Position numbers and translations under genes: made by a program. A DNA stretch of 64,000 bases from an uncultured Solirubrobacteraceae bacterium (GTDB lineage: Bacteria; Actinomycetota; Thermoleophilia; Solirubrobacterales; Solirubrobacteraceae), in NCBI GenBank assembly GCA_963793935.1, contig CAWCBZ010000005.1, positions 75,139-139,138 of the forward strand, read 5' to 3'. The notes beneath the pieces were generated by a model, which did not search any database, was not told the origin of the DNA, and saw only the letters and a list, made by a program, of their open reading frames with translations. Every line of letters begins with the position of its first letter. Position 1 is the stretch's first letter. Positions 12,978 to 64,000 of this stretch are shown here, piece after piece.

Positions 12978-13001
12978 CAGCCGCGCTCAGCGCGCTACGA
13001 C

Positions 13002-37028: not shown

Positions 37029-37901
37029 GTGACGACGGCACCGGCACAGAGCGTCGCGCCGTCTCGTTGGCCGCGCCCCACCGAGCGATCGCAGCGCTGG
37101 TCGGCTCGCTATGCCTTGGTCGCGTTGATCGTCGGCGCAGTGGCCTCGTCGGTGGTCGTCTGGACGCTCAGATGGATCGGCATCGACGTCCCGCGCGGTG
37201 TCAGCGGCCTGTTCGTGGAGATCGCTCTGCTCTGCACGCTCGTGCCGCTTTACCGCTCGGGCAGGCTGCGACCGGTCGACCTCGGACTGCGCCGCGTGCC
37301 GCCGGCGCGTTCTGTGGGCTATGCCGTTCTCGGCCTGTTCGCGTATGGGTGGTCGAGCCGCCTGTGGAGCTCAGCGGTGCATCCGCCGCCGATCCACGGC
37401 ACCTTCGCCGGCATCGCCGATCAGAGCACGGCCGTGATCGCATTGACGGGCCTGGTCGCCGTGGCCGGCGCTCCGATCGTCGAGGAGGTCTTCTTCCGCG
37501 GCTTTCTCTACCGCAGCCTGCGAAACCGCATGCACATCCTGCCCGCCTGCCTGGTCGTCGGCGCGGTGTTCGGAATCGGCCACACGCAGTACCCGCTGCT
37601 CGTGCGTCCGGTGCTCGCCGGGTTCGGCGTGATCACCTGTCTGATGTACGAGCGCACGGGCTCGCTGCTTCCGGGGATCGCGATGCACTCCTTGATCGAC
37701 TCGAGCGGCTTCGAGTACGCATTGACCGGGCGCGTCAACATCGTCTTCGAGGCCTTCGCGCTGCTCGCGCTGGCGATGCTGCTGCTCGGCTTCTTCAAAA
37801 CGATCGGCCGGGCGCACACGCCGGAATCGCTGCCGAACAAGTCGGGGCTGCAACGGATGCGCGCGCGGCGGGCTCACTCTGAGACAGGCGCTGGAGGCTG
37901 A
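37029..37901 (+). CDS. CPBP family intramembrane glutamic endopeptidase (CAAX protease-like)
   Basis: Motif 1 EEVFFRG, motif 2 FGIGH, motif 3 H in last helix. Polytopic. Confidence 0.7.
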   Translation: MTTAPAQSVAPSRWPRPTERSQRWSARYALVALIVGAVASSVVVWTLRWIGIDVPRGVSGLFVEIALLCTLVPLYRSGRLRPVDLGLRRVPPARSVGYAVLGLFAYGWSSRLWSSAVHPPPIHGTFAGIADQSTAVIALTGLVAVAGAPIVEEVFFRGFLYRSLRNRMHILPACLVVGAVFGIGHTQYPLLVRPVLAGFGVITCLMYERTGSLLPGIAMHSLIDSSGFEYALTGRVNIVFEAFALLALAMLLLGFFKTIGRAHTPESLPNKSGLQRMRARRAHSETGAGG

Positions 37902-38009
37902 GCGACGCGCTTTTGTTGGGAGGCGTAGAGTTCGAGCGACCCGTTTTCACTCGACATCCGGAATAGCTCTTACCGCGGCCGACCGTACCTTGCTGAGAGG
38001 ATTCTGAAA

Positions 38010-38615
38010 ATGCCTTCATCGCCGGCTCCCGCACCTGCACCTCCACCGGCCTTTGCGTGGGATGGGCTCGGCCAGTTCAAGGCAGGAGGCCGATTTCTCG
38101 ATGGCTATCCCTCAGACGTGCGCACCTTCTACTCGCCGGTGGACAACGTCCATCAAGTGCTCGTCTCGCTGCTGGCATCGACGCAGAAGTCGATCGTGCT
38201 GAACATGTACGGCTACGACGACTCAGACCTCAACGACATCATTCTCGAAAAGCTCGAAGACGACCATGTGTATGTGCAGATGAGCCTGGACAAGTCTCAG
38301 GCGAGCGGGAAACGTGAGCGGAGCTTGCTGGCGAAGTGGAAGAACGACGCCGCCGGCAACTCGATCGCGATCGGGCACTCGAGCAAAGGCGCGATCTCGC
38401 ACATGAAGATTCTGATCGTCGATGGCGTTTACACGGTGCGCGGATCGACCAACTGGTCGCTCGGTGGCGAGCAGGATCAGGACAACGAGCTGACGATCCA
38501 CAACAACGCCGTCATCGCCGCCGAGACGCGAGCGGAGCTCGACCGCAATCATGACGAAATGCTCAAGCAGATGGCCAAGGCCAGGTCGACTGGCCCCCCG
38601 GCGGGGAAACAATGA
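38010..38615 (+). CDS. Phospholipase D-like (single HKD) domain protein, Nuc-like
   Basis: HKD motif SHMKILIVDG....GSTNWS. One PLD domain of approx. 170 aa, implying a homodimeric Nuc/BfiI-type fold. Lower GC than flanks. Stop overlaps the next gene's ATG. Confidence 0.65.
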   Translation: MPSSPAPAPAPPPAFAWDGLGQFKAGGRFLDGYPSDVRTFYSPVDNVHQVLVSLLASTQKSIVLNMYGYDDSDLNDIILEKLEDDHVYVQMSLDKSQASGKRERSLLAKWKNDAAGNSIAIGHSSKGAISHMKILIVDGVYTVRGSTNWSLGGEQDQDNELTIHNNAVIAAETRAELDRNHDEMLKQMAKARSTGPPAGKQ

Positions 38616-40098
38616 GCGGCGAGCCTGACCTGTCACTCAAGCGACTGAACGACATCAAGCACATCGTCGTGCTGATGATGGAGAACCGATCCTTCGACCA
38701 GATGCTCGGCTATCTCAAGCGGGACGGAATGCCCGACGTGCGCGGGCTCGACGGCACGGAGTCGAACCCCGACGCGCAAGATACGGAGCACGCGGTGTTC
38801 GAATGGAGCGCCGAAGACACGGTGTTCCACCCCCTGCAAGATCCGACCGGCAAGATCCTCGACCCCTGCCATTCCAAGGGATGCGTCGCCGAGCAGCTGG
38901 CCGATGGCAACCGCGGCTTCATCAAGAACTTCATCGCGACGCGCACGGACAAGGACGGAAACGCGGTGAGCATCCCCGAGGAGTACCACGCCCTGCCGAT
39001 GGGCCACTACGGGTCACAGCACCTTCCGATGTATGACTTCCTCGCGCGCAACTACACCGTCTGCGACGCCTGGCACAGCTCGGTCCCAGGCGACACTTGG
39101 CCGAATCGGCTCTTCGCGCTCGCCGGTCGCGAGGGGCCCAAGGCGCTTGCGCCGCTGATGGAGCGCATCAAGGAGGAGTTCAAACACGAATTGCACCTGC
39201 TGCAGAACGCACCGATCTACGACGTCGCGACCTTTCCCGACACCTGGCTGCCGACCAGTGGCGCTGGTACTCCCATGATCCCGCGACCCTGCGCGCAGCC
39301 GACGATCGCTATCGCCAGTTCGGCGAGCGCGGGAACTTCGCGTTCTTCGACCGACGGGCGGTAAGCATTCTCACGGAACTGCTGGAGAGCCCGATCGTCA
39401 GCCCCGACAGCTTCCTCGACGACGCGGCCAGCGGCAGGCTGCGCGAGGTCTCGTGGATCGATCCCAATTTCATCGACCTGAAAGTCCTCGAGACGGACTC
39501 CAACGACGACCACCCACCCTCGGACGTACGTGCCGGGCAATCGCTGGTCTTGGAGGTCTATGAGGCGCTGAGGAACAGTCGCGATTGGCAGGACACGCTG
39601 CTGGCGATCGTCTATGACGAGCACGGTGGGTTCTACGACCACGTCGCGCCGCCGGCGCTGGGGTTCGAGGACAGCTCCGGTTATCAGACCTTCGGCGTGC
39701 GCGTGCCCGCCCTGCTGGTAGGGCCACGCGTGCCAGCAGGTGTCTGTCACACGCAGTTCGATCACACGAGCCTGATCAAGACGATCTTGCTGCGCTTTGC
39801 CGAGCAGCCCCAGGAGGCGATCGCCCAGATGGGTGCACGCGTCGCGCATGCCGAGCATCTCGGCGTTGTGCTGGGCGACGAGCCGCGTGCGGCGATCCCT
39901 GACAACGAGGACGCTCGCAGCGCGATCAGCGAATGGCGGGCGAGGACCAAGGCGGCGAGGCGAGGCACGCCGCCCGATCAGAACCCGTTGGCGTGGGACG
40001 GGGCCGGCGGCGCCGTCGGCCTGCACGAGTTCCAGGAAGACTTTGCTCGGTTTGCACTTTCGATGCGCAGGGCGGGGCTTCCCTATGGAGAGCCTTGA
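38612..40098 (+). pseudogene. Phosphoesterase family protein (non-haemolytic phospholipase C / acid phosphatase, PF04185-like) with one frameshift near 39250
   Basis: HIVVLMMENRSFDQMLG, PNRLFALAG (frame 1) and then WIDPNFID..DDHPPSDVRAGQ, IVYDEHGGFYDHV, GVRVPALLVGP (frame 2). Total approx. 495 aa, as expected for the family. Confidence 0.65.
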
Positions 40099-40120
40099 TC
40101 CCGCGTAAGCGCTGTCAGCA

Positions 40121-40531
40121 CTAAGCCCCTTTCTTGGGGTCGCCTCCGATCTGCTCAGCGGCTCTCGACGCTGCCTGCTGGGCGTCGTCTTGCTTGTCTC
40201 CGGGAACGAACGCCTGAACAGCGGCGAGCTTGGCGTGCGCTTCACTGGCGTCTTGCGCGAGACCCTTGCTTTGATCGGTGCCGATCTTGATGCCGAGGTA
40301 GGCGCCAACCACAGCCGAGATCACGCCGAAAGCAGCAGTCGTCAACGGGATCATCGTGTTGGCGTCCTTGCCACTGTCGATGAAGGCCATCGTCGAGATC
40401 GCGAGCGCCGTGATCGCGAACACGCCGAACAGCACCGCGACCAGGCCGCCGACGCTTTGGATGCTCTCGGCCGTTGGCAAGACTTTGTTATCTCCCGATC
40501 CGGCCTGGTGCTGCCCCACTTGAGTCGCCAT
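40121..40531 (-). CDS. Hypothetical small membrane protein
   Basis: Two hydrophobic helices flanked by charged regions. No homology recognised. Confidence 0.35.
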   Translation of the reverse strand: MATQVGQHQAGSGDNKVLPTAESIQSVGGLVAVLFGVFAITALAISTMAFIDSGKDANTMIPLTTAAFGVISAVVGAYLGIKIGTDQSKGLAQDASEAHAKLAAVQAFVPGDKQDDAQQAASRAAEQIGGDPKKGA

Positions 40532-40740
40532 CCGAGTCCTCCCTTGCGCGCAGTTTGCGCATATTGGGGAAACGTTCGACTGAGCTTACTCATTCCGACT
40601 GAGCGGCGGATTCTGCCAGCTCGGTATATCGGCTGGTCGGTTTGTGTGAGACGCTGTTAAGCAGTTACCGACACGGCTCGTCGAGTGTCGACTAGGCGGC
40701 GTTCGCTTCTGGGATCTCGACCTGCTCAAGCCATTCCGGC

Positions 40741-40823
40741 CTAGCAAAGCTTCAGGGAGGGCGAAGTGCGCCAGCTTTTGCGTGCGTGCTTGCGCGGCGC
40801 CGACGTCTACTGCGGCACTGAGG
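40741..40823. repeat. Direct repeat copy A (approx. 85 bp, about 88% identical to 41478-41562)
   Basis: ctagcaaagcttcagggagggcgaagtgcgccagc...ggcgccgacgtctactgcggcactgagg recurs 737 bp downstream with a few substitutions/indels. Confidence 0.7.
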
Positions 40824-41090
40824 CAGCGGGCCTGCCGGGGGCGGCTCAAGCGCCACCTCTACTCAGAGAGCAATCCGAGGTCGCGTCTGGGGCACGCAGC
40901 CTCAGTTCAAGTGGTCGCTATCACGGTGCGGGGTCTCCGTCGTCACCATCCGGCTCGTCTCCGATCCGACCATAAGGTCCAATGCGGAACGCTGGATCGT
41001 TGGGTCCACTCGGCGGCCCGCCCCCGCCCCGCGTCATGTAGAAGCCGATGACAACTACCACGACGACCGCTATGCCGATGATCGCGTCTT

Positions 41091-41374
41091 TTATCGCCAC
41101 CAAGTTTTGCGCATCCGTCGGCCGACAGGTTTTTCAGGCACGTTGACGAGGCGCTCGTTGAAGGTCCAGCGCAGGCCTTCAGCCGTGCCGACGTAAAGAC
41201 CCGGCTTGCCGTAGAGCAGGCGCTTGTGTTCGAGCAGGCCGTCGCGAACCAGCAGCGATAGGCAGGCGTAGGCCCAGTTGCGGCCCATGCCAAGCGGAAC
41301 ATCACGTGCTCGGCAGAGGCAGCTCCGATCCGTACCAGCCAGCTGACGATCTGGGCATCGCGGTCTGTTTGCAT
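41091..41374 (-). pseudogene. Remnant of a winged-helix DNA-binding protein gene (two frames)
   Basis: MQTDRDAQIVSWLVRIGAASAEHVMFRL (one frame) followed by ...AYACLSLLVRDGLLEHKRLLYGKPGLYVGTAEGLRW (another frame) together look like a wHTH/MarR-type recognition domain split by a frameshift. Low GC. Confidence 0.3.
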
Positions 41375-41477
41375 GGCGCCTCCTTGCGGCGATCGACTTG
41401 AGTACTTCCGACTAGATGTCGATCAGAGGCAGCTATAGACCCCCTGACAATTTCGAGCTAGCGCAAGCCAACCGCAG

Positions 41478-41562
41478 CTAGCAAGGCTTCAGGGAGGGCG
41501 CGAAGCGCGCCAGCTCTCACGTGCTTGCTTGCTCGGCGCCGACGTCTACTGCGGCACTGAGG
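41478..41562. repeat. Direct repeat copy B
   Basis: ctagcaaggcttcagggagggcgcgaagcgcgccagc...ggcgccgacgtctactgcggcactgagg. Indels break any common reading frame, so likely non-coding. Confidence 0.7.
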
Positions 41563-41665
41563 GGAGCAGAGATGCCGAGCGGGCTCAGGCGCTGCTGCCC
41601 CTAAGAGCTTGCTGTTGGCCCACCATGAGCCAGCGGGGTTGAGCTGAGTGCTTACATAGCCCCCG

Positions 41666-42331
41666 TTAAGGAGCCGTCACGGTGCGCGGACCGTCGCCTT
41701 CCAGCCAGTAAATGCGCCCAGGAACGGCAGCCAACGAGCGATAGTCGATCGTTGCAGAGCTCGCAACGTGCTGAGGATCGCGCGAGCCGGCACGGAGCTC
41801 GAAGACATCGTTGACGGTCGGGGTCGCTTCTGCACCGGCCGTGATCCAAGCCACTGTGCCCTTTGGGGTAAGCACCAGGTTCCTTACCCCGCCCTTGGGC
41901 GATGGAAACTGGCCAGCGGCCGCGCATTCCCGCGATTTTCCCTCCTGAACATTCACTCGGCAAACCTTCCAAACATCGACTGGAGAGGTCCCGCCGATCT
42001 CCAACGCGTAGGCCGCATAACGCCCTGCGACGCTCAAGTGGCTAAGGGTGACTTCAAGGTCGGGCCCCGGCATTTCATCGCCCAAGCGGGTGAATCTTCC
42101 CGATGGCCGCCACAAGGCGAACGTGCTCTGGTAGGGAATTTCCGCGACGTGGCGCTGTCGGGCTTGCACGACGCGCAATTGCTGCGTTTCGGCCAGGGTG
42201 CGACACCGATACTTCCGGCAGGAAGGCGCGACACGGCGCGCACTCGCTGCCGCGAGAGGCCACGCGAGCCCGAGCGGCACCACCAGCGCAACCGCCCCAA
42301 AGCGAAGCATTCGCAGGACGCTATAGCTCAC
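41666..42331 (-). CDS. Secreted hypothetical protein, translationally coupled to upstream giant gene
   Basis: Signal peptide MLRFGAVALVVPLGLAWPLAAASA. Start codon overlaps the stop of 42331-45954. No known domain. Confidence 0.5.
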   Translation of the reverse strand: MSYSVLRMLRFGAVALVVPLGLAWPLAAASARRVAPSCRKYRCRTLAETQQLRVVQARQRHVAEIPYQSTFALWRPSGRFTRLGDEMPGPDLEVTLSHLSVAGRYAAYALEIGGTSPVDVWKVCRVNVQEGKSRECAAAGQFPSPKGGVRNLVLTPKGTVAWITAGAEATPTVNDVFELRAGSRDPQHVASSATIDYRSLAAVPGRIYWLEGDGPRTVTAP

Positions 42332-45300
42332 TACGTCGTCTTGTGTCGATAAACATAAAAGATTGGCCTCGGCATATTACCGGGGTTGAGCAACCCTGAA
42401 TCTTGATGCCCACTCGACTTCGCTTCGCCTCTCATCTCGTAATAGTAGAAGCTAGTGATCTGACGGCTCTGACGCGTCAGCTGGTGCGCGCCATCCTCGA
42501 CATAGGCGTGCATGATCCGCAGTGCGTTCGTGCTGCTTGCAGCCGGCTTATTTACGTATTTGTTTGAGAAAATCACGCCTTGCTCGCTCAGCCAGATGTC
42601 TGGCAGCTTACGAGCTTTGGTCACTTTATCGATCTCCTTGCGGAATGCCTTAAAGCGACTCCACCATTTGCCTGGTTCCTTCCATTCCTTCGTGCCCGCG
42701 CGAAGGCCGTCCGTGTAGGTGTGCCAGGCCCACCGTGCTGCCTGCGGATGGCTCATCCCAAGCAGGTATTTATGGAAATATTTACCGCCCGTGGTCTTCC
42801 CATTGCCCGCTTCGGGCATCTTTGTATCAGAGAAGTCCCCGGCCGCCACGAGGCAGTTGTGGTTTTTCGGCGCACAGAGCGCGTCCAGCACCGCCCAGTA
42901 TTCTCCAGCTAGTTCAGCCTTTGTCAGTTCGCTCGTGGGTTGCGTGGGATTATTGGGCTCATTCCACGCGGTAAATAGGTTGACATTTTTCAAAACCGGG
43001 TTGGTCAAGAATTCAGTGACGGCCGTGGTGTATTCAGCGCGTTCCGGTGGAGTGCTGCAGCTCTTCGTCGCCGATTCCCCGACTTTTGAGTGCGCGATCC
43101 ACGACCCATCGCATCGCTCAAAGGAGATCAGCGGCTGACCGCCGCCTGGAAGTGCGCGGACTTTTTCCACCCATTTTTCGACGTCTTTGAGCTCTTGTTC
43201 TTGTGCCGTACCCCCATGGGTGCCCGCATATACGATGTCAAACGGCACAGTGCGGCGGACACGTTTCACATGAAGGCTTTTGAAAGTACCCTTGCCGAAA
43301 TATTCGAAATGCGTCCCTTCAATGACATGGTTGTTGTCTGAGATGCCGTACTGCGCCGGCGCTAGGTCCGGAATGCTTTTTGCCACCAGCGGCGCGAATG
43401 AGCCTTCTCCTTCTTCTTCTTCTTCTTCTAGGTTCGCTTCGTTTTCCGGTTCTGGATCTTCTTCGCCGCAGTATTCAGTGGGTACATAACACGCTCCTTC
43501 TGCAACTTCTTCCTGGGCTTCGAATTCCGAGGAGCCTTCTTCTGCTTCGTCAGCTGGTTCAGTGTCGCTCGTGATTTCGCCGAGCGCGTTGTAACAGTAC
43601 GTCGTCGATCCGCCTTCTTCGCCCGGTGCGTCCGCCACGACGGTCTGCCCTACATCAGTTTCGGGGTTGCAAGTCGGGCTGGCTGGCGCTTCATAGGCGT
43701 ATGAGGTGATTTCGTCTTCGCTGCCTGGCGTGCTGACCGTGCCATTGACGATGCGCCGCGTAGACGTTACGCGGTCACTTTCGTCGTAGGCGATGATATA
43801 GGTCCCGCTAGGGTCGACGATTTTGTTGAGCAGGTCTTCGCTGGTGTATCCGTATTTCGTTTCGTGGCTTTCTGGACCGGTGACGGTCGTCAAACGCGCC
43901 GAGCCGTCGTACGTATAGTTCCATTCTTCGCCGTGAGCCCCGTTGATTTTCGTCACGTAGCCTGAGAAGGGGTCACGAGTCAGCGTCAGTTCGTTGCCGT
44001 GTGTGTCGCTCAAGCCCGTCAGGTGTTCGTACGCGTATGAGAGAGAGATCGTGTTGCCTTCCCCGCTTGGATCAACGATCTGTTCGGGGAAGCCGTCGTT
44101 GTCATACTTCCAATCGGTTTCAGTTTCTGGGTAGGTGACGGTCCGCGTGCCATTTTCATGTTCGATCAGCGTCGGCGGTTCTTCGCCGGTTGTCGTGAAC
44201 GCTTTGTCTCCCGCGCTTGGCGCCCCATCGGCGGACGGGTTTCGGTCGTAACGGCGATCGGAGCCATCGGGCTGTTGGACGATCGCCGAGCCGTCCCATC
44301 CGGTGTGGTAGAGGATGCCGTCTTCACCTGTGCTCAGCCGCCAAAGGTGCATCGCGCCACCGGCGATCTGATCGTACTGGCTGTTGTAGTAGCGGACCAA
44401 TTCCGTTTCGTAACCTTCGGTTTCGTAGCGCATTTCGGGATCGTTCACAAAGAGGTTGCCGTTGACGACGTTGACGCCCATCGTCGCGCCGTAGCCGATT
44501 GAGTCTTCGATCAGCGTCTGGTCAGGCTGGCTACCGAGATGCGGCTCATAGAGCACTTCGACAAACGGTTCCGGTGTTTCTTCGGGGCTGTCGGTCTGCT
44601 CGAAGGCGTAGTAAGTCGGCGTCGTCTCATTAGCGGCCTTCAGTAGAACCCCGTGATTGGAGCTGGGATTTCTGATCCATTCTTCGACTTGCGGCGTGAA
44701 GCCCCAACTGACAAATTCTCCTTCGTTGGCAGGGCTGACGGTTTGTTGGCCGATGGGCGTCGAGCCAAAGTCGCCGCCGGCGCTGGACCAGGGGGTTTCG
44801 TAGGCCGACTGGTTCCACGTGACATAGTCGGTGAAGTCGTGCGATAGGGCGAAGGCCTGGATATCCAGGGGTTCTTCGCCGACGTGCCAGTCCTCCCATA
44901 GCGCGAGGCGCGAGCGAAGGACGTTGGCGTCCGTCGGAACGCACGTCATATCGAAGTGGGTGACAGTGCGCGCGACGTGTTGGGGCGATTCAGAGTCAGC
45001 GCCAATGAACAGCGGGCCGCCGCATTCCTGAGCGTTGGCCAAGTCTTGACTGATGATCGCGCAGTCTTCGCCTTCGGTGTAATAGACTTCAGGGTCGATC
45101 ACAACCGGAAAGACTCGCTTGGGGCTGCTCAGCCATGCCTTGTCGAGTACTAGAGAGAGAGTTGAGCCGTCGCTGCTCAATGTGTAGTGCACGGGACGGC
45201 TTGATCTAAAGGAACGGTTCGGCGAGGAGTCGGTGACGGTAGGAGGAGCCAGCCAGTACGCCCTCCGCCCCGCCGTGTTCGCGATGTCCACCCTTCCGCT

Positions 45301-45954
45301 GGGACGCAGCGTCGCATGAAGTCCGGGACTCAGAGAGAGCGCGTAGCGATACGTCGTCGGGGCCGCGCGGCTTGCCAAGGAGAGCGTCTCGCGGACGCTG
45401 TCGGGCGACGAGACGTAGGAGACGCTGACGCCCGGCAGAGCGCCGGCATAGGAGCGGCGGCTGCCCACCGCAGAACCTTCTGCCTTGCTGGCGCCTTCCA
45501 GTGCAAAGGAGAAACGCTGGCCGCTCGGCCCAACCTCGATCGGGCCGCTGCCCAGCGAGGCGGGCAGGCTGATCGGAACAGGGGTAGCGGCCGGGTGCCA
45601 CTTGCCGTCGGCCGAGCGTTGAAGGCGGTTTTCGATCGCATGCCAGACACCGTTGACCCGATAGTTGATCGGATGGGAATAGATGTGCTGAGAACGGGTT
45701 CCGTCGGCTAGCTGGTAGGTGTCTGAGGTAGCTGTCCTCAAGCTTGGGATCTCTCGCGGAGCCGCTTCGCCCTGCCGATCGGGGCGGGCTGCCGTCGCCG
45801 TGTTGCCCGAGGCTGGCAGCGCGCCGAAGGCCAGCAAGCCAAGCACCGCGCAGGCGAGCAGGTAAGCGGTCGGATGCAGGCGGCGGTCCGCGGGTCGCTC
45901 GACCTGCCGCCTCAAGCGACACCAACGCGCGCAACTACGCAGCGACGTACGCAT
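42331..45954 (-). CDS. Large secreted Rhs/WapA-like YD-repeat protein with C-terminal clan GH-A glycoside-hydrolase-like domain
   Basis: 1207 aa. N-terminal signal/TM. ENRLQR segment resembling the DNRLRE-domain N-terminus of Gram-positive Rhs proteins. YD repeats (YDRNPSADG, YTYDGSARLTTVTG, YGYTSEDLLNKIVDPSG, IAYDESDRVTS). Acidic (E)6 linker. C-terminal domain has FTAWNEPNN (acid/base) and IWLSEQG (nucleophile) spaced like a GH5-type TIM barrel. Codon usage is A/T-richer than the genome. Confidence 0.65.
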   Translation of the reverse strand: MRTSLRSCARWCRLRRQVERPADRRLHPTAYLLACAVLGLLAFGALPASGNTATAARPDRQGEAAPREIPSLRTATSDTYQLADGTRSQHIYSHPINYRVNGVWHAIENRLQRSADGKWHPAATPVPISLPASLGSGPIEVGPSGQRFSFALEGASKAEGSAVGSRRSYAGALPGVSVSYVSSPDSVRETLSLASRAAPTTYRYALSLSPGLHATLRPSGRVDIANTAGRRAYWLAPPTVTDSSPNRSFRSSRPVHYTLSSDGSTLSLVLDKAWLSSPKRVFPVVIDPEVYYTEGEDCAIISQDLANAQECGGPLFIGADSESPQHVARTVTHFDMTCVPTDANVLRSRLALWEDWHVGEEPLDIQAFALSHDFTDYVTWNQSAYETPWSSAGGDFGSTPIGQQTVSPANEGEFVSWGFTPQVEEWIRNPSSNHGVLLKAANETTPTYYAFEQTDSPEETPEPFVEVLYEPHLGSQPDQTLIEDSIGYGATMGVNVVNGNLFVNDPEMRYETEGYETELVRYYNSQYDQIAGGAMHLWRLSTGEDGILYHTGWDGSAIVQQPDGSDRRYDRNPSADGAPSAGDKAFTTTGEEPPTLIEHENGTRTVTYPETETDWKYDNDGFPEQIVDPSGEGNTISLSYAYEHLTGLSDTHGNELTLTRDPFSGYVTKINGAHGEEWNYTYDGSARLTTVTGPESHETKYGYTSEDLLNKIVDPSGTYIIAYDESDRVTSTRRIVNGTVSTPGSEDEITSYAYEAPASPTCNPETDVGQTVVADAPGEEGGSTTYCYNALGEITSDTEPADEAEEGSSEFEAQEEVAEGACYVPTEYCGEEDPEPENEANLEEEEEEGEGSFAPLVAKSIPDLAPAQYGISDNNHVIEGTHFEYFGKGTFKSLHVKRVRRTVPFDIVYAGTHGGTAQEQELKDVEKWVEKVRALPGGGQPLISFERCDGSWIAHSKVGESATKSCSTPPERAEYTTAVTEFLTNPVLKNVNLFTAWNEPNNPTQPTSELTKAELAGEYWAVLDALCAPKNHNCLVAAGDFSDTKMPEAGNGKTTGGKYFHKYLLGMSHPQAARWAWHTYTDGLRAGTKEWKEPGKWWSRFKAFRKEIDKVTKARKLPDIWLSEQGVIFSNKYVNKPAASSTNALRIMHAYVEDGAHQLTRQSRQITSFYYYEMRGEAKSSGHQDSGLLNPGNMPRPIFYVYRHKTT

Positions 45955-46280
45955 ACCCAGCCTCCCTCATAAGTGCGTGTGGAGCCGCAGCTCCTATGTC
46001 CCCCGGTGCTTCGCGGAGAGCCCTGTCCGAGCTAATGCGCAGGTCTATTGCAGATTCGCTTGCCTGTCAAGACCCAAATAACGGGACGTCGACATTCATA
46101 CGACGCGATGTCGATATTTGGGCTGCGCGCGCCAGGTTGAATGAGCGCGGAGCGGGTACACAGAAGTGGCACCCGGCCGAAGCACGGTCGCGCTAACGCA
46201 ACTGAGAGGCCATACCGGACAGGGCATGAGGCCTCCGGCTCGGCCGGGTGCCAGTGCAAAGCCTAACCGGCACTTCTTGA

Positions 46281-46355
46281 GGGTGAGCGACGGGACTTGA
46301 ACCCGCGACCGCCTGGACCACAACCAGGAGCTCTACCAACTGAGCTACGCCCACC
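46281..46355 (-). tRNA. tRNA-His (GTG)
   Basis: Reverse complement GGTGGGCGTAGCTCAGTTGGTAGAGCTCCTGGTTGTGGTCCAGGCGGTCGCGGGTTCAAGTCCCGTCGCTCACCC folds as a cloverleaf. Anticodon loop TTGTGGT, encoded G-1, T-loop GGTTCAAGTCC. Confidence 0.85.
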
Positions 46356-46383
46356 ACGGGCCCCGCAGTCTAGCGCCGGGCGC

Positions 46384-47124
46384 TCAGCCCCTGCGGGCGA
46401 TCTGCAACGCACCGACCACGCCGTCGCCCCAGCTATCGAGCGCGCGCAGCGCGGCCTCGACGCGATCCTCGGTCACGTCCTGCCAGGCTGTCGCGGCGCC
46501 CGGAGCATCTGCGTCGGCGCCCGGCGCGCCGCCCTCGCGAAGCACGACCAAACCGCGCCCGATCAGCGAGTGCACGGCCGCCTCGCCGAGCGCCAACGAC
46601 TCGGCCGCTGAGGCGTCGCCGAGCCGCTGCGCCGCCATGCGCCACGCCTGCGCCAGCGTGACCGGCGCGCCGTCGACGATGCCCAGCAGCTCCAGCGCGA
46701 GCGAGTCGGCGAGCAGCCGCGGGTCGGCCGCTGCGCCGCCGGTCGGCTGCGCCGCGGTTTCAGCAGCCCTGCCCTCCCCCTCCGCATCCGCGCCGCTCGC
46801 CGCGACGGGCGCATCCGTTGGAGCCGCAGCCTGCGCGCCCGCGCCCGCGCTCGTGCCCTGCCTGACGGCCGCGAGCACGCGCTCGGTGACGTTCTCGCTG
46901 CGCCGCTGCGCGTTGCGCCAGCCGCGGCCCATCGCCAGCTCGGGCATCGACAGCTTGGGGCCCTCGAGCACGGTGATGGTGGCTTCGTTGGAGTTCCACT
47001 TCTGTTCGCCCTCTTCGAACCACTCCTCTTTGACCCACGGCACGAGGATCGCGGCGACCTGCGCTTCGCTCTGGTTGAAGCGGCAGACCGTGTGCGGGAA
47101 CTTGCGCAGCTCGAGGTGATACAC
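46384..47124 (-). CDS. Hypothetical protein
   Basis: 246-aa ORF with good codon bias. N-terminal 80 aa non-repetitive (MYHLELRKFPHTVCRFNQSEAQVAAILVPWVKEEWFEEGEQKW), Ala-rich C-terminal half. No family recognised. Confidence 0.45.
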   Translation of the reverse strand: MYHLELRKFPHTVCRFNQSEAQVAAILVPWVKEEWFEEGEQKWNSNEATITVLEGPKLSMPELAMGRGWRNAQRRSENVTERVLAAVRQGTSAGAGAQAAAPTDAPVAASGADAEGEGRAAETAAQPTGGAAADPRLLADSLALELLGIVDGAPVTLAQAWRMAAQRLGDASAAESLALGEAAVHSLIGRGLVVLREGGAPGADADAPGAATAWQDVTEDRVEAALRALDSWGDGVVGALQIARRG

Positions 47125-47142: not shown

Positions 47143-48417
47143 TCAGCGACGTACGGGCACCTGTGCCTGCCGCGCCTGCCGCGCCTGCCAGGCTTCGACC
47201 ATGGCCAGGCGCTGGACGATCGTCGGGTGGTTGTCGAACAGCACGTAGCTCCACGTCGGCGGGTTGGGATTGGCCAGGCTCGTGCGTGCGAGATCGGCAA
47301 ACAGCGCACGTGCCGAGGCGGGATCGCGCGTGGCGCGCAGCGCCGACCAGTCGGCCTCGGCCTCCTGGCGACGCGAGACGATGTTCATCAGCGGCGCGGT
47401 CAGCAGCTGCAGCACGACGAACACGAACAACGCCACCGGCACCGCCTGCGGGCTGGCGAGGCCGCCGCGCGGGCGCGTGAACAATGCGACGAGGCCGGCC
47501 GCCGGCAGCAGGAACAGCGCCAGCCAGCCGACGTCCTTGAGGATGTGCTTGTGCGCGATGTGGCCGAGCTCGTGCGCGACGACCACGCGCACCTCGCCGC
47601 GCGAGAAGCGGCCGTCGAGCAGCGTGTTCCAGAGGATCACGCGCCGCGTCGAGTCAAAGCCGACCGACTCGGCGTTGGGCGCGGTCGTCTCGCGGTCCAC
47701 GCGCTGCACGTCCGCGCGCGTGCCTGCAACGTGCTCGATGCGCGCCAGTTCGCGCACGTCGGCGGCGGTCGTCGGCGCGGTCAGCGGTTCGGTGTTGGGG
47801 ATCAGATAGACGGTCAGAAAGGCCGACAACAGCGCCAGTGCAGCGAACGCCGGCGCGGCGACGGCCCACCACCAGCGCCGCAGCACGCCGGCCAATCCCA
47901 TGGAGATCAAAAGCGCCAGCGAGACGAACAGGAACTTGCCGCCGAGCGAGAGAAAGCTTTCGATGAGCGACGCCACGTAGCCCTGGTGGGAGATGCCGTG
48001 TTTGCGCTGCCACCAAACCGCGGCCAGGCCGAACGGAATCTCGGCGATCCACAGCACGGCGAAGCCGAGCATGCCGAGCATCATTCCCGTGCCGATGCGC
48101 CCGGCGGCGGACTCGCGCATCAGCCGGTGCCCGCAGCGTGCGTACAGCGCGAACACGACCAGCACGGTCAGCGCGCCGAGCAGCGCGTCGATCGCCAGAA
48201 AGCGTTCGTAGGAGGCGCTGCGGCGCAGAAACGCCGCCGAGAAGACATGGTGCGGGTCGACGTGCGCCAGCTGCAGCCCGCTGGGCACGCTCGTGTGCCA
48301 CAGCGCGTGCGCCGCCAGCGCCCACAGCACGGCGAACGCGACCAGGCCCACGAGCACCGCCGAGCTGTGCGCGGGGCGCGCCGCCGCCCGCCGCCAGATC
48401 GCGCGCGCGCCGGCCAA
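47143..48417 (-). CDS. M48-family zinc metallopeptidase (HtpX/Ste24-like), membrane-bound
   Basis: HEXXH motif HELGHIAHKH plus downstream E, multiple TM helices, 424 aa. Confidence 0.75.
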   Translation of the reverse strand: MAGARAIWRRAAARPAHSSAVLVGLVAFAVLWALAAHALWHTSVPSGLQLAHVDPHHVFSAAFLRRSASYERFLAIDALLGALTVLVVFALYARCGHRLMRESAAGRIGTGMMLGMLGFAVLWIAEIPFGLAAVWWQRKHGISHQGYVASLIESFLSLGGKFLFVSLALLISMGLAGVLRRWWWAVAAPAFAALALLSAFLTVYLIPNTEPLTAPTTAADVRELARIEHVAGTRADVQRVDRETTAPNAESVGFDSTRRVILWNTLLDGRFSRGEVRVVVAHELGHIAHKHILKDVGWLALFLLPAAGLVALFTRPRGGLASPQAVPVALFVFVVLQLLTAPLMNIVSRRQEAEADWSALRATRDPASARALFADLARTSLANPNPPTWSYVLFDNHPTIVQRLAMVEAWQARQARQAQVPVRR

Positions 48418-59193: not shown

Positions 59194-59397
59194 CGCGGTT
59201 TCCTTCGTGCTCGGCGTCTGCAGCGACGCTATCAGCTAAACACTAGTTTGTCGACCTGATTTATGGACTTTAGCACACCGGCAAGCTAAGTCAGCTCTGC
59301 CGCGTCTTGCGAAACCGCTGCATCGCCGAAAAACCTGCCGAGATTGCCACGCCGCTCCTTCAGTCGGCGCCCGCGCCTGTCGACACCCACTGAAGTC

Positions 59398-60039
59398 ATG
59401 GAAGACCAGTCCTCGACCGCCGCGAACGCGCCGGGTCAGCGTGGCGCGCGCTGGCCTGCTCTGCTACGCCGGCGCCTGGCAGGCAACGGCGGCTTCACCC
59501 TCGTCGAGGTGGTCGTCGCCGCGGCGCTTGCGATCGGCGTGTTCGTCGCGATACTGAGCATGCTGGACAACAGCCAGCGGGTGGAGGCGCGCGACAGCGA
59601 ATGGGCGCTCACCCTGCAGGACGCACGCAGCGGCTTGGCGCGCATCGCGCGTGAAGTACGACAGGCGTCGAAGGTCGAAAAAGCTGAAGCCGGGACGATC
59701 GACTTCTTCGCGCGGATCGGCACGAGCAGCTACCACGTACGCTTGGAATGCGGCGTCGCAGAAAGCGCAACGAGATACAAGTGCGTTCGTTTCGCCGCCG
59801 AAGAAGGCAAAAGCCTGCCGGCCACCGGAACGCGGATCGTCGGCGGAGTCCTCAACGGCAGCGAAGTCTTCAAGTACTTCAAGGATGGCGCGGCCAACAC
59901 GACGGAACCGGACTACGTGACGCTGAAGCTCGAAGTGCCCGCCTCAGGCGCCCTCACGCAGAGCGGCAGCAGCTTCTACAAAAACCGCGTGGTTCTCACC
60001 AACGCGGCATACATGCGCAACCTCAACCCGGAAGGCTGA
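59398..60039 (+). CDS. Type IV pilin-like minor pilin (PilW-like), prepilin N-terminus
   Basis: Prepilin cleavage/methylation motif GG|FTLVEVVVAAALAIGVF after a long basic leader. Approx. 210 aa. Confidence 0.55.
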   Translation: MEDQSSTAANAPGQRGARWPALLRRRLAGNGGFTLVEVVVAAALAIGVFVAILSMLDNSQRVEARDSEWALTLQDARSGLARIAREVRQASKVEKAEAGTIDFFARIGTSSYHVRLECGVAESATRYKCVRFAAEEGKSLPATGTRIVGGVLNGSEVFKYFKDGAANTTEPDYVTLKLEVPASGALTQSGSSFYKNRVVLTNAAYMRNLNPEG

Positions 60040-60041
60040 GG

Positions 60042-60743
60042 ATGAGCTCGCGCAGCTTCTCGGGAGACGTCGGGCGCCTGCATCGCTGCCACTTGGGCGA
60101 AGAGCAAGGGATCATGATCGTCGAGGTGCTCATCGCGGTCCTCGTGCTCGTCGTGGGCATCCTCGGCTTGATCGGAGCGTTCGACAGCTCTCGCAAGCTC
60201 GACCTCCTGTCCGAACGGCGCACGGTCAGCGCCCACCGCGCGCAGCTCGAGGTCGAGCGCCTGCAGGCGATCCCCTACGCGCAGCTCGCGTTGATCTCTG
60301 CCCCCGCCCACTCCAGCGAAACCAAGAGCCCCGACTACTACGTCAACTACTCGAGCCCGGTGAAGTGCTCGAGCCCCAATTGCTATGCCTGGAACCTGGC
60401 GAGCACCGGCGAAGAAGAGCCCTTGGTCATCGCCACCAAAGCCGAAGAATGCCCATCGGCGATCGCCACCGGATGCGGAACGGTCGCGGCGTCGCCAATC
60501 GGTCGCAGCTGCACCTCGGTCGCGGGAGCGTGCGAATGGACCGACGGCACGGTGAGCGGCAAGGTCTACGACTTCATCACCTGGCACAAAGACGGCGTCT
60601 GCGAAAAAGAAGAAGCCGGCAAAAAGCTCTGCTCCAGCGAAAGCTACAAGCGGATCACGGTCGTGGTCACGGTCAACGTGCCGAGCGGCCAAGCACCGAC
60701 GCCGGTCCGCGTCTCGACCCTGATCGCAGAACCGACGTCGTGA
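60042..60743 (+). CDS. Type IV pilin-like minor pilin (PilV-like)
   Basis: QG|IMIVEVLIAVLVLVVGILGLIGAF N-terminal helix. Cys-rich C-terminal half. ATG overlaps the previous stop. Confidence 0.55.
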   Translation: MSSRSFSGDVGRLHRCHLGEEQGIMIVEVLIAVLVLVVGILGLIGAFDSSRKLDLLSERRTVSAHRAQLEVERLQAIPYAQLALISAPAHSSETKSPDYYVNYSSPVKCSSPNCYAWNLASTGEEEPLVIATKAEECPSAIATGCGTVAASPIGRSCTSVAGACEWTDGTVSGKVYDFITWHKDGVCEKEEAGKKLCSSESYKRITVVVTVNVPSGQAPTPVRVSTLIAEPTS

Positions 60744-60757
60744 CCTACGGATTGAGG

Positions 60758-62149
60758 ATGATTTCAATGCGCAACTACTTCCACACAAGTGATCGAGGCG
60801 GCTCGGAGGCCGGCTTTGTCCTGCCGACGGCCGTCATCGTGCTGGTCGTGATCACGGCGCTCACCGGCGCTGCGGTCTCCGTCGCGGTTCGATCGTCGAC
60901 CTCCACGACGCGCGACGACAACACGAAGGCTGCGCTGGAGGCCGCCGAAGCCGGGCTGCAGGTCGCCCAGTACCGCATCAACGCACTGAAGCCGAAAACC
61001 ACGCAGTGCGTCGCCTCCTCCGAAACCAAGACCGTGGAAGCCGAATGCAAGACCACAGCGCCCGAGGCGCTGGGCAACGGCGCATCCTTTCAATACTGGA
61101 CGTCGCTGCCGCTGAAAAACGGCGCGAAATGCGCCGGCGAAGCGGTCGTCGAAAAATCCGGCACGGTTCAGCGCTGCATCACCTCAGAAGGGACGGCCAA
61201 CGGAACCCAGCCGGGCACGCGCCTACAGGCGCGCGTCGAATCCGCGGTCGGCGAAGCGCTGTTCGCGATCCACGGCATTCTCGGTCTCGAAGAAGTCAAG
61301 GTCAGCGGGTCGGTCAAAGCCACCTCGATCGTCGCCAGCAACGGGCTGATCAAGGGAGAAGGCAGCGCGGCCTTCGAAAAGGGCTTTGAAATCTGTCCGC
61401 CAAGCGGCGAATTCAAACCGGCTGCCGGCAGCGAAAGGAACCGATCGGGCGTGACGGTCGGTGGCGTGGGTGGAACGCTGTCCAATCCGCCTTTGGAAGT
61501 CACGCGCACCTCGGGCTGTCCGATCGAAGCGAAACTTCCGAGCGTTCACGCGACCGCGACGGAAAACGAAGACAGTCACATCGGAGGGAGCGACGAATTC
61601 GCCACCGCAGGAAAGTCGGAAAACAAATTCACCGGCTCGCCGACCTACGAACTGACCGCCGCCAGCAACGCCAAGCTCACGCTGCACGGCCCGAAGTACT
61701 ACTTCTGCAAGATCCTGGTCGAACGCAATGGCGAACTGAAAATCGAAAAAGGCGTCAAAACTGAAATCGTCGTGGACTCCCACGAAGACAACCCCAGCTG
61801 CCCGGTCGGCACAGGCACGTTCGCGATCGAAGGCAGCGCCAAACTGGAAAACCCGAACGGAGCCGGCGCGCTGCTGATCATCATGATCGGCAAAGGCCCA
61901 CTGAAGATCACCAACGGAGGCAGCCTGGTCGCGAACATCTACGCGCCCGAAGCGGAAGTGATCCTCAGCGGCAGCGGCACGCTGACGGGCGCGATCGTGG
62001 GCAAGAAGGTCAAGCTCGAAGCGGGCTCCTTCAACTTCAGCGAAGAATCCGAAGCGATCGAAGTCGCGAGCGGCAGCGGCGGCGCCTACGCACGCAAGGG
62101 CTGGCAGCAGTGCACGCCCTCGAGCGAACCGGCGACCGCGATCTGCTGA
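60758..62149 (+). CDS. PilX-like pilus-associated protein with C-terminal repetitive beta-rich domain
   Basis: PilX_N-like helix GFVLPTAVIVLVVITALTGAAVS. Long Gly/Ser/Thr-rich C-terminal domain (..ANIYAPEAEVILSGSGTLTGAIVGKKVKL..). GAGG RBS upstream. Confidence 0.55.
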   Translation: MISMRNYFHTSDRGGSEAGFVLPTAVIVLVVITALTGAAVSVAVRSSTSTTRDDNTKAALEAAEAGLQVAQYRINALKPKTTQCVASSETKTVEAECKTTAPEALGNGASFQYWTSLPLKNGAKCAGEAVVEKSGTVQRCITSEGTANGTQPGTRLQARVESAVGEALFAIHGILGLEEVKVSGSVKATSIVASNGLIKGEGSAAFEKGFEICPPSGEFKPAAGSERNRSGVTVGGVGGTLSNPPLEVTRTSGCPIEAKLPSVHATATENEDSHIGGSDEFATAGKSENKFTGSPTYELTAASNAKLTLHGPKYYFCKILVERNGELKIEKGVKTEIVVDSHEDNPSCPVGTGTFAIEGSAKLENPNGAGALLIIMIGKGPLKITNGGSLVANIYAPEAEVILSGSGTLTGAIVGKKVKLEAGSFNFSEESEAIEVASGSGGAYARKGWQQCTPSSEPATAIC

Positions 62150-62216
62150 GCCCGCCGCGGCCGCCGCCCCCTTCGGTCCGGTCCGCGAAAGCCCGCAAAT
62201 CCGGCCTCTGACGAGC

Positions 62217-62281
62217 GGGGAACCGAGGAGTCGAACCTCGCGTTGCGGTTTTGGAGACCGCCGTGTATCCCGGGAATCCCC
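62217..62281 (-). other. tRNA-Trp(CCA)-like fragment with degenerate D-arm (pseudo-tRNA / att-site remnant)
   Basis: Reverse complement GGGGATTCCCGGGATACACGGCGGTCTCCAAAACCGCAACGCGAGGTTCGACTCCTCGGTTCCCC. It has a perfect anticodon arm (CCA), T-arm (GGTTCGACTCC) and acceptor 3' strand, but only an 11-nt D region. Confidence 0.45.
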
Positions 62282-62404
62282 TTCTTTGATAGGGCAGAGA
62301 TGCAGAGCGCAGTCAATAGGGACCGCTAGAGGGACCGAATCCCCCCGCCCGCAAGTGCTTGGAGCGGCCTCGAACGTGTCGATCGCGGCTGCAATGCTTC
62401 ACCA

Positions 62405-63316
62405 GTGCAGATCCATCGACCGAAAGATCAAGACCCCAAGCGCTGCCGACTATGCGGAGAGGAACGGCCGCTCACCTTTGAGCACATCCCGCCGCGAGCG
62501 GCCTATAACCGCAGTCGAGTCTCGATGCTCGGAATCGAGGCGTGGCTCGCCCACGACGCCGATCCGAGCGGTCCGGCGCCCAGGCGTCGCATCCAGCAGC
62601 GCGGTTCGGGCGCCTACTCACTCTGTGCCGAGTGCAACAATCTGGCCGGTCGCCTCTACGTACCCGAGCTGAGATCCTGGGTGCAGGCCGGCGCGGACGG
62701 ACTCTTCGGCGAGCCGGGGCTCGCGGGCCAGTTCCGCGAGGAGGGGCGCACCGTGTATGCCGAATGGAAGCTCCAGGGGTGTCGCCCTGGGCGCTTTCTC
62801 AAGCAGGTTGTCACGATGCTGCTCGCGATGAGCCCGCCCGCGCTCGGCGATCGCGTCCCTGCGCTACGCAGCTATGCGCGCGATCCCGACAAGCTCGGGC
62901 TGCCGCCCGAGTTGCAGCTCTACCTCGCGCTCTACGCTGGGCCCAACGGTCGCTACGTATCCGGAGCAGCGCAGGCCAGCCTCGGACCCGACAGCGGGAT
63001 CCATCACATCTACGAGCTGGCCGCACCGCCCTTCTCCTACATCCTTAGCATGGACGAGCAGACACCGGTGATCGAGGCGGGCAATATCTCGAACTTCGCC
63101 ACCTGTGGCATTGACCAAACGGCAAACGTCGAGATGCAGTTGATCATCGGATACGGCGAGACGCCGTTTCCGCTGGACTTCCGCTCGCCCGCCGCTCTTA
63201 GGGCGCGCCGCGGCCGAAGCCACGATGGGTGCTTGAGCAGAGGCGCTCCGTCACTTAGCCGGGGAAGATCTCCTCTCGAGTCCAGCACCGGACAGTGTCT
63301 TGGAATTGTCGTTTAG
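62405..63316 (+). CDS. Hypothetical protein with N-terminal HNH/His-Me-finger-like zinc-ribbon motif
   Basis: CRLCGEERPLTFEHIPPRAAYN ... CAECNNLAG reproduces the CxxC-H-N-CxxC spacing of HNH nucleases. The remaining approx. 220 aa are unassigned. Confidence 0.4.
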   Translation: MQIHRPKDQDPKRCRLCGEERPLTFEHIPPRAAYNRSRVSMLGIEAWLAHDADPSGPAPRRRIQQRGSGAYSLCAECNNLAGRLYVPELRSWVQAGADGLFGEPGLAGQFREEGRTVYAEWKLQGCRPGRFLKQVVTMLLAMSPPALGDRVPALRSYARDPDKLGLPPELQLYLALYAGPNGRYVSGAAQASLGPDSGIHHIYELAAPPFSYILSMDEQTPVIEAGNISNFATCGIDQTANVEMQLIIGYGETPFPLDFRSPAALRARRGRSHDGCLSRGAPSLSRGRSPLESSTGQCLGIVV

Positions 63317-63396
63317 ATTCGCGAAGGAATTAAGACACCGCAGGGATAGGCGGGCCAAGTGGTTGTCCTGCACGTGGCGTCATGCTTGCAAATACG

Positions 63397-63963
63397 TCAG
63401 CATCGAGGGATCGTCGGCGTCCAGGTGCCGAAGCCGGGCGTGTCGATGTAGAGGTCGCTGACCCAGGCTCCGCTCGTGAGCTTGTCCCAGACCGAGCTGG
63501 ACACGCCACTGCTTGGGCTGGGTCCGACCGTCTCACCTTCAGTCTGGCAGACGATCTGCACTTCGCTTCCGTCGCCCAGCACTCCGAGACTCGCGTAGCT
63601 GGAGTACCCGGGGCCGGCGCGGAGGTGCAGTCCGCAGGCGCCGTCACGGCAGGTGTTCTCGACAAAATAGACGAAGTAGCTGGGCGTCGGTGTCGGTTCC
63701 GGCTCGGGTGTGGGGCTCGGAGTAGCCCCGTTCGGGATCGTCGGCGTAGTTGCGGTCGAGGGCGTAGCACTCCCTCCTGTATGGGCCGGCAGAACCGTCG
63801 TCAGGCTGATCGTCCCACCCGGGGATGTGGTGAACGAGTCCAAGAGCTTCGATGCCGCGTCCTTAAGTGCTTTTTCTGCGACCGACGCCCCGAGGAACTC
63901 GAGGGAAAGCGGCCCAATCTTCAACTCCGGGCCGAAGCCCGTTTCGAAGATGCATCTGATCAC
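63397..63963 (-). CDS. Hypothetical protein with Pro/Thr-rich linker
   Basis: 188-aa ORF. N-terminal alpha-rich part, PT-rich linker (TPSPTPEPEPTPTPS), Cys-containing C-terminal domain. No family recognised. Confidence 0.35.
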   Translation of the reverse strand: MIRCIFETGFGPELKIGPLSLEFLGASVAEKALKDAASKLLDSFTTSPGGTISLTTVLPAHTGGSATPSTATTPTIPNGATPSPTPEPEPTPTPSYFVYFVENTCRDGACGLHLRAGPGYSSYASLGVLGDGSEVQIVCQTEGETVGPSPSSGVSSSVWDKLTSGAWVSDLYIDTPGFGTWTPTIPRC

Positions 63964-64000
63964 AATCGCGACGCCCGCTAGCGGAGACGCTTGACCGGCC

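Follow-up and report, generated by a model that had tools for sequence, protein, structure and literature searches.

Genes and boundaries of a probable integrative-element remnant with a putative effector-immunity cassette at tRNA-His in a Solirubrobacteraceae bacterium

The subject of this study was a tract of lowered guanine-plus-cytosine (GC) content next to the tRNA-His(GTG) gene in a 64-kb stretch of contig CAWCBZ010000005.1 (assembly GCA_963793935.1) from an uncultured Solirubrobacteraceae bacterium; this whole stretch is called the window. Read leftward from the tRNA gene, the tract contains a structured leader element, the gene for a large secreted protein with DNRLRE and YD-repeat segments, the gene for a small exported partner protein, a winged helix-turn-helix (wHTH) pseudogene flanked by direct repeats, and the gene for a small membrane protein. 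These are followed by two genes in the opposite orientation, which specify a phospholipase C (PLC)-type protein and a phospholipase D (PLD)-superfamily protein. A CAAX protease gene lies beyond the left end of the tract, and a conserved gene of 246 amino acids (aa) and an M48 peptidase gene lie on the other side of the tRNA gene. The coordinates of all features are given in Table 1.

The 3' end of the minus-strand tRNA gene (46281) borders the tract, which therefore lies on the 3' side of tRNA-His as the initial annotation had placed it. That annotation had also proposed a search for a repeat of the tRNA 3' end near the left edge of the tract, and such a repeat was present. The sequence CTGGAGGCTGAGCGACG (37891-37907) was identical at 15 of 17 positions to CTTGAGGGTGAGCGACG (46276-46292), which covers the final 12 nucleotides (nt) of the tRNA and the 5 nt that follow. 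This was the sole other match with two or fewer mismatches on both strands of the 64 kb, for which shuffled sequences gave an expectation of 0.01. It overlaps the stop codon of the CAAX protease gene and coincides exactly with the left GC boundary. When a longer repeat of the tRNA end was sought in the window, only this 17-mer was obtained, with no internal copy between the sub-block containing the PLD and PLC genes and that containing the large gene. In an Rfam scan of 37.0-47.5 kb at E ≤ 1 the tRNA was the sole match, and a scan for promoters and terminators gave only background levels.

The base composition of the tract set it apart from the rest of the window. The GC content was 0.604 in 40560-46280 and 0.614 in 37701-46280, compared with 0.685 for the whole window, 0.698 for the left flank, and 0.692 for the right flank; the minimum of 0.54-0.56 was reached at 42.5-43.5 kb. 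The 4-kb segments across the tract were the strongest tetranucleotide outliers of the 64 kb, and their distance from the rest of the window peaked at z = 6.3 at 41-45 kb and was z = 3-4 at 37-42 kb. The dinucleotide signature was deviant only from ~39 kb rightward. The GC content at third codon positions (GC3) was 0.68-0.84 in six open reading frames (ORFs) of the tract versus 0.86-0.95 in 22 flanking genes (Mann-Whitney p = 1e-4). Because the tRNA-end repeat sits where the GC content drops, the island extends from approximately 37,908 to 46,275 (8.4 kb) and includes the PLD/PLC block. These measurements bore out the low-GC, deviant character that had been assigned to the tract, and changed three particulars of the initial annotation: the left edge, put at ~40.56 kb, was moved to ~37.9 kb by the repeat and the GC boundary; the PLD/PLC block at 38.0-40.1 kb, described as distinct, fell inside the corrected island; and the remainder of the window, given as 70-72% GC, measured ~69-70% in the flanks. 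In a 6.3-kb contig of a second assembly (Logan ERR12040023), the genes between the tRNA edge and the 3' end of the PLC gene were in the same order. Because the order was reproduced in a short-read assembly of another run, we conclude that the tract is not a contig chimera.

Loci from relatives (designated L with a number) were fetched by means of the M48 peptidase gene, which lies two genes past the tRNA, with one genome taken per species. The nearest relatives were 71-81% identical in the M48 protein, and no conspecific genome was found among the loci fetched in this way. The comparison of synteny that had been proposed at the outset revealed a shared tRNA-His flank with different DNA after the tRNA. 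The order 820-aa gene, methyltransferase, DUF4389, M48 peptidase, 246-aa gene, tRNA-His was kept in 11 Solirubrobacteraceae relatives, and the DNA after tRNA-His was different in every relative examined. It consisted of an rve-family transposase gene of an insertion sequence (L009:12208-13356) and a DUF6036 gene in L009, hypothetical genes in L002 and L006, aminotransferase and anthranilate-synthase genes in L004, a transporter gene in L010, and, in L019, one ~275-aa gene followed by BrkB-MIP. The ~275-aa protein was NTF2/SnoaL-like as judged by eye, without a family-library scan. In L005 there was an additional tRNA-Asp gene (L005:12869-12942) at the same tRNA-His site. Many conserved genes of L019, a metagenome-assembled genome, aligned piecewise in different frames, which suggests that this assembly has a high indel error rate and that its gene lengths are unreliable. 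Comparison of the island with the relatives' loci by tblastx was too noisy at this GC content.

The closest relative, L001, provided the most direct counterpart of the window island. After its tRNA-His gene comes a 4.9-kb block with a GC content of 59-60% (L001:12890-17857); the block holds one bona fide Rhs gene of 1408 aa with an RHS-associated core, and no integrase and no obvious immunity gene were found in it. At the far end of the block is a ~35-38-nt copy of the tRNA-His 3' end (L001:17820-17857) with ~92% identity over 38 columns, and the same CAAX protease gene comes directly after it (orthologues 69% identical in L001 and 66% in L019). Because the L001 repeat occupies the equivalent position, we regard the 17-mer of the window as the eroded counterpart of an attachment-site (att) repeat. 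The 330 nt from the tRNA to the start of the large gene were 76% identical between the window and L001, and the large-gene proteins were only ~24% identical. The shared tRNA-proximal leader indicates that the insertion is older than the split of the two species; the simplest reading of these alignments would be one old insertion common to both lineages, with its cargo replaced later. The CAAX protease gene lies between the island and BrkB in both the window and L001 (L001:17833-18666), and between MIP and GNAT in L019 (L019:14875-15729). This differing position indicates that a local rearrangement accompanies the island-bearing arrangement.

Functions for integration or transfer were then sought within the island. 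Neither the called ORFs nor any reading frame of 40.1-41.7 kb and the leader contained an integrase or recombinase domain, in agreement with the initial annotation. Relaxase, coupling-protein, and type IV secretion system (T4SS) genes were absent from the window island and were found only near homologues elsewhere. The repaired fragment of the wHTH pseudogene (94 residues) had a weak PHROG match to a phage transcriptional regulator (E = 1.8e-4) and shared 59% identity with the N-terminus encoded by an intact 232-aa gene at another locus (L030:12147-12845). A further member of the large-protein family is encoded 1.2 kb away from the 232-aa gene, and the L030 element carries tyrosine integrase, single-stranded DNA-binding protein (SSB), and excisionase-type HTH genes. 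In the PLC-type gene, positions 1-145 of the PF04185 profile matched in one frame and positions 223-353 in another; NCBIfam matches to PC_PLC and acid_phos were far under the cutoffs. The wHTH-type and PLC-type pseudogenes imply that the island is probably no longer mobile. The PLD-like protein had weak NCBIfam matches to NucT and DrmC, a match to phrog_12711, and no tblastn match in PLSDB plasmids. The 136-aa membrane protein had no Pfam, PHROG, or NCBIfam match. An old and immobilized element, as first proposed, is supported by the decayed repeat, the two pseudogenes, the missing integrase, and the 76% identity of the L001 leader.

Table 1. Features of the tRNA-His island, its flanks, and related loci. 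Positions refer to the window unless a locus designation is given.
Feature	Position	Strand	Remarks
CAAX protease gene, Rce1-like (host flank)	37029..37901	+	Pfam; GC3 0.86; stop codon inside decayed repeat
Decayed distal repeat of tRNA-His 3' end	37891..37907	+	15/17 match; left island boundary
Single-HKD PLD-superfamily protein (Nuc/NucT-like), 201 aa	38010..38615	+	Pfam PLDc_2, 37.5 bits vs cutoff 27
Phosphoesterase-family (phospholipase C / acid phosphatase) gene	38612..40098	+	Probable pseudogene; one frameshift near 39.2-39.25 kb
Predicted membrane protein, 136 aa	40121..40531	-	ORF; GC3 0.77; also called in independent assembly
Direct repeat copy A, ~140 bp	40714..40853		~80% identical to copy B
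wHTH-type pseudogene	41094..41374	-	First ~94 of 232 codons; one frameshift at 41.29 kb; three-frame translation
Direct repeat copy B, ~140 bp	41450..41592		Between partner gene and wHTH remnant
Exported partner gene, 221 aa	41666..42331	-	Start overlaps large-gene stop; translationally coupled
Secreted multidomain protein gene, 1207 aa	42331..45954	-	Signal peptide, DNRLRE, short YD segment, acidic linker, GH-A-like domain
Conserved GC-rich structured element in large-gene leader	46166..46252	-	~210 nt before ATG; fold -58.6 kcal/mol, z = -6.0
tRNA-proximal att-type sequence	46276..46312	+	Final 32 nt of tRNA-His and the 5 nt past its 3' end; copy at L001:17820-17857
tRNA-His(GTG), putative integration target	46281..46354	-	ARAGORN; Rfam tRNA, 63.9 bits; 3' end (46281) toward island
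Conserved 246-aa gene, 5' side of tRNA-His (host flank)	46384..47124	-	Synteny in L001-L010 and L019
M48 peptidase gene (host flank)	47143-48417		After 246-aa gene
tRNA-Lys near other family member	L032:7771-7845		
tRNA-Pro near other family member	L033:4879-4952		
tRNA-Ser near other family member	L029:248-339		

The 1207-aa protein has an N-terminal hydrophobic signal peptide, as read from its sequence, followed by a DNRLRE domain (aa 314-467; NCBIfam DNRLRE_dom, 57 bits versus a cutoff of 34), a YD-repeat segment (~aa 600-770), an acidic linker (~aa 790-855; 33% Asp plus Glu), and a glycosidase-like domain (aa ~850-1207). Pfam gave a single RHS_repeat match, and the PDB sequence matches were to Rhs repeats only (aa 614-736). 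At ~170 aa the YD segment is too short for a cage, and the RHS-associated core (TIGR03696), which NCBIfam detected in the L001 Rhs protein, was absent. Thus the original description of a 3.6-kb Rhs/WapA-like gene fits the DNRLRE/YD part of the protein, and does not fit its remaining features, in that the protein lacks both an RHS-associated core and a full YD shell and has a glycosidase fold at its C-terminal end. The AlphaFold2 (AF2) model of this last domain (predicted local distance difference test [pLDDT] 72.5; predicted template modeling score [pTM] 0.79) was a (β/α)8 barrel with the GH-A fold. Its structural neighbors were glycoside hydrolases (GH) of families GH1, GH5, GH39, and GH51 and the exopolysaccharide hydrolase PslG. 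The C-terminal motifs WNEP, WAWH.Y, and W(L)(T/S)EQG were invariant in 12 homologues, as were Glu999 and Glu1124, which lie at the strand-4 (NEP) and strand-7 ends in the model. These would be the positions of the acid/base and the nucleophile of retaining GH-A enzymes, and the domain is a putative glycosidase.

The overlap of the 221-aa gene with the end of the large gene upheld the initial annotation of a coupled secreted partner. The partner was predicted to be an all-β partial propeller (AF2 pLDDT 88.9), and its Foldseek matches were partial β-propellers. It had no Pfam, PHROG, or NCBIfam match, and its family comprises ~198 representative clusters.

A protein search produced 46 relatives, all of which share residues ~1-800 (the carrier) and whose C-termini (the heads) are of at least four kinds. 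Eleven relatives have the glycosidase-like head, 14 continue into full RHS proteins of ~1570 aa, about a dozen have a different ~400-aa head bearing TAGHC and GSSGSP motifs (protease-motif heads), and the others have short unrelated heads. DUF6531 was seen in homologues, as were weak, overlapping Pfam CBM96 matches on the DNRLRE region. An exported partner homologous to the 221-aa protein (39-44% identity) was present at all five glycosidase-type loci (the window, L026, L028, L034, and L035). A different small lipoprotein is common to two of the protease-motif loci, still another is encoded at a third, and the 221-aa partner is unrelated to the small exported proteins beside the other C-terminus types. 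The protease-motif heads were considered as S1 proteases and their small partners as I78-type inhibitors; Pfam confirmed neither, and these assignments are motif-level guesses. In most family members examined, GC3 was lower in the head (0.46-0.66) than in the carrier (0.71-0.89), a difference that is expected if the heads are exchanged modules. A C-terminal module of lower GC content is a pattern known from Rhs "tips."

The genomic contexts of family members elsewhere include T4SS coupling-protein or FtsK-like genes, toxin-antitoxin pairs, and SIR2/TIR defense genes. Others lie downstream of tRNA-Lys (156 nt), tRNA-Pro (~1 kb), and tRNA-Ser (~8 kb) genes, which suggests that the carrier family commonly travels on tRNA-targeting elements.

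Two kinds of non-coding element were found with the cassette. The leader element is ~90 nt long and, in four family genes, precedes the start codon by about 200-290 nt; in addition to the window copy there are copies upstream of homologous genes at L001:13063-13150, L028:2072-2160, and L035:7709-7790. RNAalifold analysis of three sequences gave 30 pairs, 4 of them compensatory. The element had no Rfam match, and two exact-pattern scans of metagenome contigs produced no match; a 20-mer match in the viral contig L038 had unrelated flanks and was judged to be due to chance. The element may function as a leader RNA or, alternatively, as a DNA site. The direct repeats have a 63-nt core at 90% identity and flank the frameshifted, truncated wHTH-type ORF. 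A decayed wHTH gene between direct repeats had been described initially; the decayed gene was confirmed, and the repeats, reported as 85 bp, proved to be longer and imperfect (Table 1). An ~85-nt core of copy B was 88% identical to L030:11496-11581 and 76% identical to L036:3355-3466. Because the core is better kept (76-88% among loci whose proteins are only 45-59% identical) than the proteins, it is a conserved non-coding element of these islands, and may be a promoter, operator, or recombination site. Two other assignments of the ~140-bp repeats were rejected: as an RNA, the consensus fold was weak (-13 kcal/mol) with no net covariation, and as a small-peptide gene, the substitution pattern gave no support.

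We consider it quite probable that the tract is a degraded remnant of one or more integrative elements at tRNA-His and that it carries a putative effector-immunity cassette. At least one integrative element would have entered the 3' end of tRNA-His by site-specific recombination in an ancestor of this Solirubrobacteraceae lineage. Integration would have duplicated the tRNA 3' end, the distal copy of which would have eroded to 15/17 nt, and the integrase and any transfer genes would have been lost. The tRNA-His site would be a hotspot, with turnover of its content from species to species. The first gene of the cassette would specify a Sec-exported protein in which the acidic linker connects a DNRLRE/YD carrier with a retaining glycosidase domain of clan GH-A, and the second, translationally coupled gene an exported β-propeller-like protein. 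Across the family the carrier would stay constant, and exchange of the C-terminal enzyme head would be accompanied by a change of the downstream partner. The most likely mechanism would be that of a polymorphic secreted effector directed against a glycan of competitors' envelopes or matrices, with the partner serving as the cognate inhibitor or immunity protein in the wall compartment of the producer.

Several observations weigh against this interpretation. The window repeat is just 17 nt with two mismatches, and, with no integrase or excision function at hand, the mechanism of integration is deduced from the repeat alone. No tRNA-end repeats were found at the three family loci by tRNA-Lys, tRNA-Pro, and tRNA-Ser. 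The GC dip is in part a property of the large-gene family itself wherever this family occurs, so that the depth of the dip overstates the recency of acquisition and provides no clock for the island. Both frameshifts could in principle be assembly errors, which the truncation of the wHTH gene cannot be. The short repeat, the missing integrase, and the absence of att repeats at the other three tRNA genes would also fit a history with no site-specific integration, in which a recombination-prone variable region lies by chance beside the tRNA and the low GC content is mainly intrinsic to the YD-carrier family, through its amino-acid content and exchanged C-terminal modules. In keeping with that history, family members in unrelated contexts have the same GC and GC3 gradient, and the flanks of several return to ~0.70 at once. 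However, the L001 repeat is a classical integrase footprint and has its decayed counterpart at the same junction of the window. Moreover, the PLD, PLC, membrane, and wHTH genes lie outside the YD family and yet have lowered GC3, and the wHTH remnant ties the tract to an integrase-bearing element. We therefore judge a history without integration to be very unlikely. A further difficulty for the integrative-element interpretation is that the dinucleotide signature of the PLD/PLC block is host-like (delta* z near 0, versus ~3 for the YD block), and the history of this block may be different from that of the YD block. The tract could be a mosaic of at least two insertions that arose by tandem accretion, with an older PLD/PLC block, a YD-cassette/wHTH block, and the ~140-bp repeats as a junction or duplication scar. 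A mosaic would account for the GC3 of the sub-blocks (0.75-0.84 versus 0.68-0.69), for the position of the repeats on the two sides of the wHTH remnant, for the recurrence of their core beside family members in L030 and L036, and for the presence of only an Rhs gene between the L001 repeats. It would not explain why the two blocks have no copy of the tRNA 3' end between them, and the gap in composition could equally come from different donors in one element or from the intrinsic bias of the YD gene. We regard the mosaic as a real possibility that falls short of likely; it is compatible with the integrative-element interpretation and is a refinement of it.

The function proposed for the cassette must also be weighed. 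The last 358 residues of the 1207-aa protein had no Pfam, CAZy-type, PHROG, NCBIfam, or PDB sequence family match, and the confidence of the domain model is moderate; both points count against the proposed effector. The cassette might instead be a surface-anchored or secreted degrader of polysaccharides, used for nutrients or on the cell's own matrix, with the partner as a helper (lectin, chaperone, or anchor) rather than an inhibitor. Such a role would agree with the structural neighbors of the domain, which are ordinary GH1, GH5, GH39, and GH51 enzymes and PslG, with the matches of homologues to CBM96, a carbohydrate-binding module family, and with the nearest folds of the partner, which are propeller glycosidases and lyases and not known immunity proteins. 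It is harder to reconcile with the swapping of glycosidase-like, protease-motif, and full Rhs-cage C-termini on one carrier, with the co-variation of the exported downstream partner with the C-terminus, or with the setting of the family among toxin-antitoxin, defense, and conjugation genes, all three of which are signatures of polymorphic toxins. On balance a degrader seems somewhat unlikely to us, and we favor a secreted effector with its cognate inhibitor.

Cis-mobilizable elements (CIMEs) have lost their integration and transfer genes and kept attL and attR (PMC6323972). The window island is like CIMEs and tRNA-linked islands in its insertion at a tRNA 3' end, distal repeat, deviant composition, variable content, and lack of integrase and transfer genes. 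It differs from a CIME in that the distal repeat is only 17 nt at 15/17, so that an intact att pair is not kept, and from a tRNA-linked integrative island in lacking the integrase gene usual beside the tRNA. Integrative conjugative elements (ICEs) and integrative mobilizable elements have an integrase plus relaxase, coupling-protein, or T4SS genes, all of which the window island lacks, and no partner ICE or integrase was identified for it. The window island is a fossil rather than a mobilizable CIME, whereas its L001 counterpart, in which the tRNA and the ~92% repeat enclose a single Rhs gene, falls within the CIME definition.

The cargo was compared in the same way with known toxins and enzymes. 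WapA of Streptococcus suis has a Sec signal, DNRLRE, LysM, DUF6531, an Rhs cage, an RHS-associated core, a C-terminal toxin, and an immunity gene (PMC12704120). The window protein resembles Rhs/WapA toxins in its Sec-type signal, DNRLRE domain, and YD repeats, in the DUF6531 of its homologues, and in having a variable C-terminal domain, a co-varying gene directly downstream, and a C-terminal module of lower GC content; the longer family members (~1570 aa) are complete RHS proteins. It differs from them in having neither a cage-length YD shell nor an RHS-associated core, in having an acidic linker in place of the autoproteolytic plug, and in the absence of a LysM or sortase context. Encapsulation would be impossible for its 360-aa head, which is predicted to be a folded enzyme of the glycosidase type. 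This head shares with clan GH-A enzymes (GH1, GH5, GH39, GH51, and PslG) the Asn-Glu-Pro at the strand-4 end, the Glu at the strand-7 end, and His-x-Tyr, all invariant, and differs from them in having no Pfam, NCBIfam, or PDB sequence match and in being fused to a YD-repeat carrier. We conclude that the cargo resembles a polymorphic effector and that the island is of a well-documented, ordinary type. A broader proposal, which we offer as speculation and believe unlikely to hold in full, is that the DNRLRE/short-YD carrier family constitutes a class of its own among the polymorphic effectors of soil Actinomycetota, cage-less and Sec-exported, with swappable folded enzyme heads (GH-A glycosidase, protease-motif, and others) and matched exported inhibitors, which would be spread by tRNA-targeting elements and controlled through the leader RNA (46166-46252).

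Two other low-GC features were seen in the window. Positions 59300-64000 have a GC content of 0.62-0.65 and a tetranucleotide z of up to 3.9, and this region, which reaches the end of the window and may be a further acquired block, codes for one DUF7305 protein and for hypothetical proteins. A lone short GC dip (0.625 in a 1-kb segment) was located at 13000-13500.

The locus leaves current concepts unchanged, and its value lies in annotation and as a lead for enzymology. It offers a clean and testable example of the decay of a tRNA-linked island in the Solirubrobacteraceae, soil bacteria that have received little study and are represented here by metagenome-assembled genomes alone: one species has an almost complete attachment repeat, another has only 17 nt of it left, and the cargo in between was exchanged. 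This cargo is indicative of a secreted-protein family in which a constant carrier is combined with exchangeable enzyme heads and matched partners. Should these proteins serve in competition, the polymorphic-toxin principle would be extended by them to those large folded glycosidases that are unable to use the Rhs cage.

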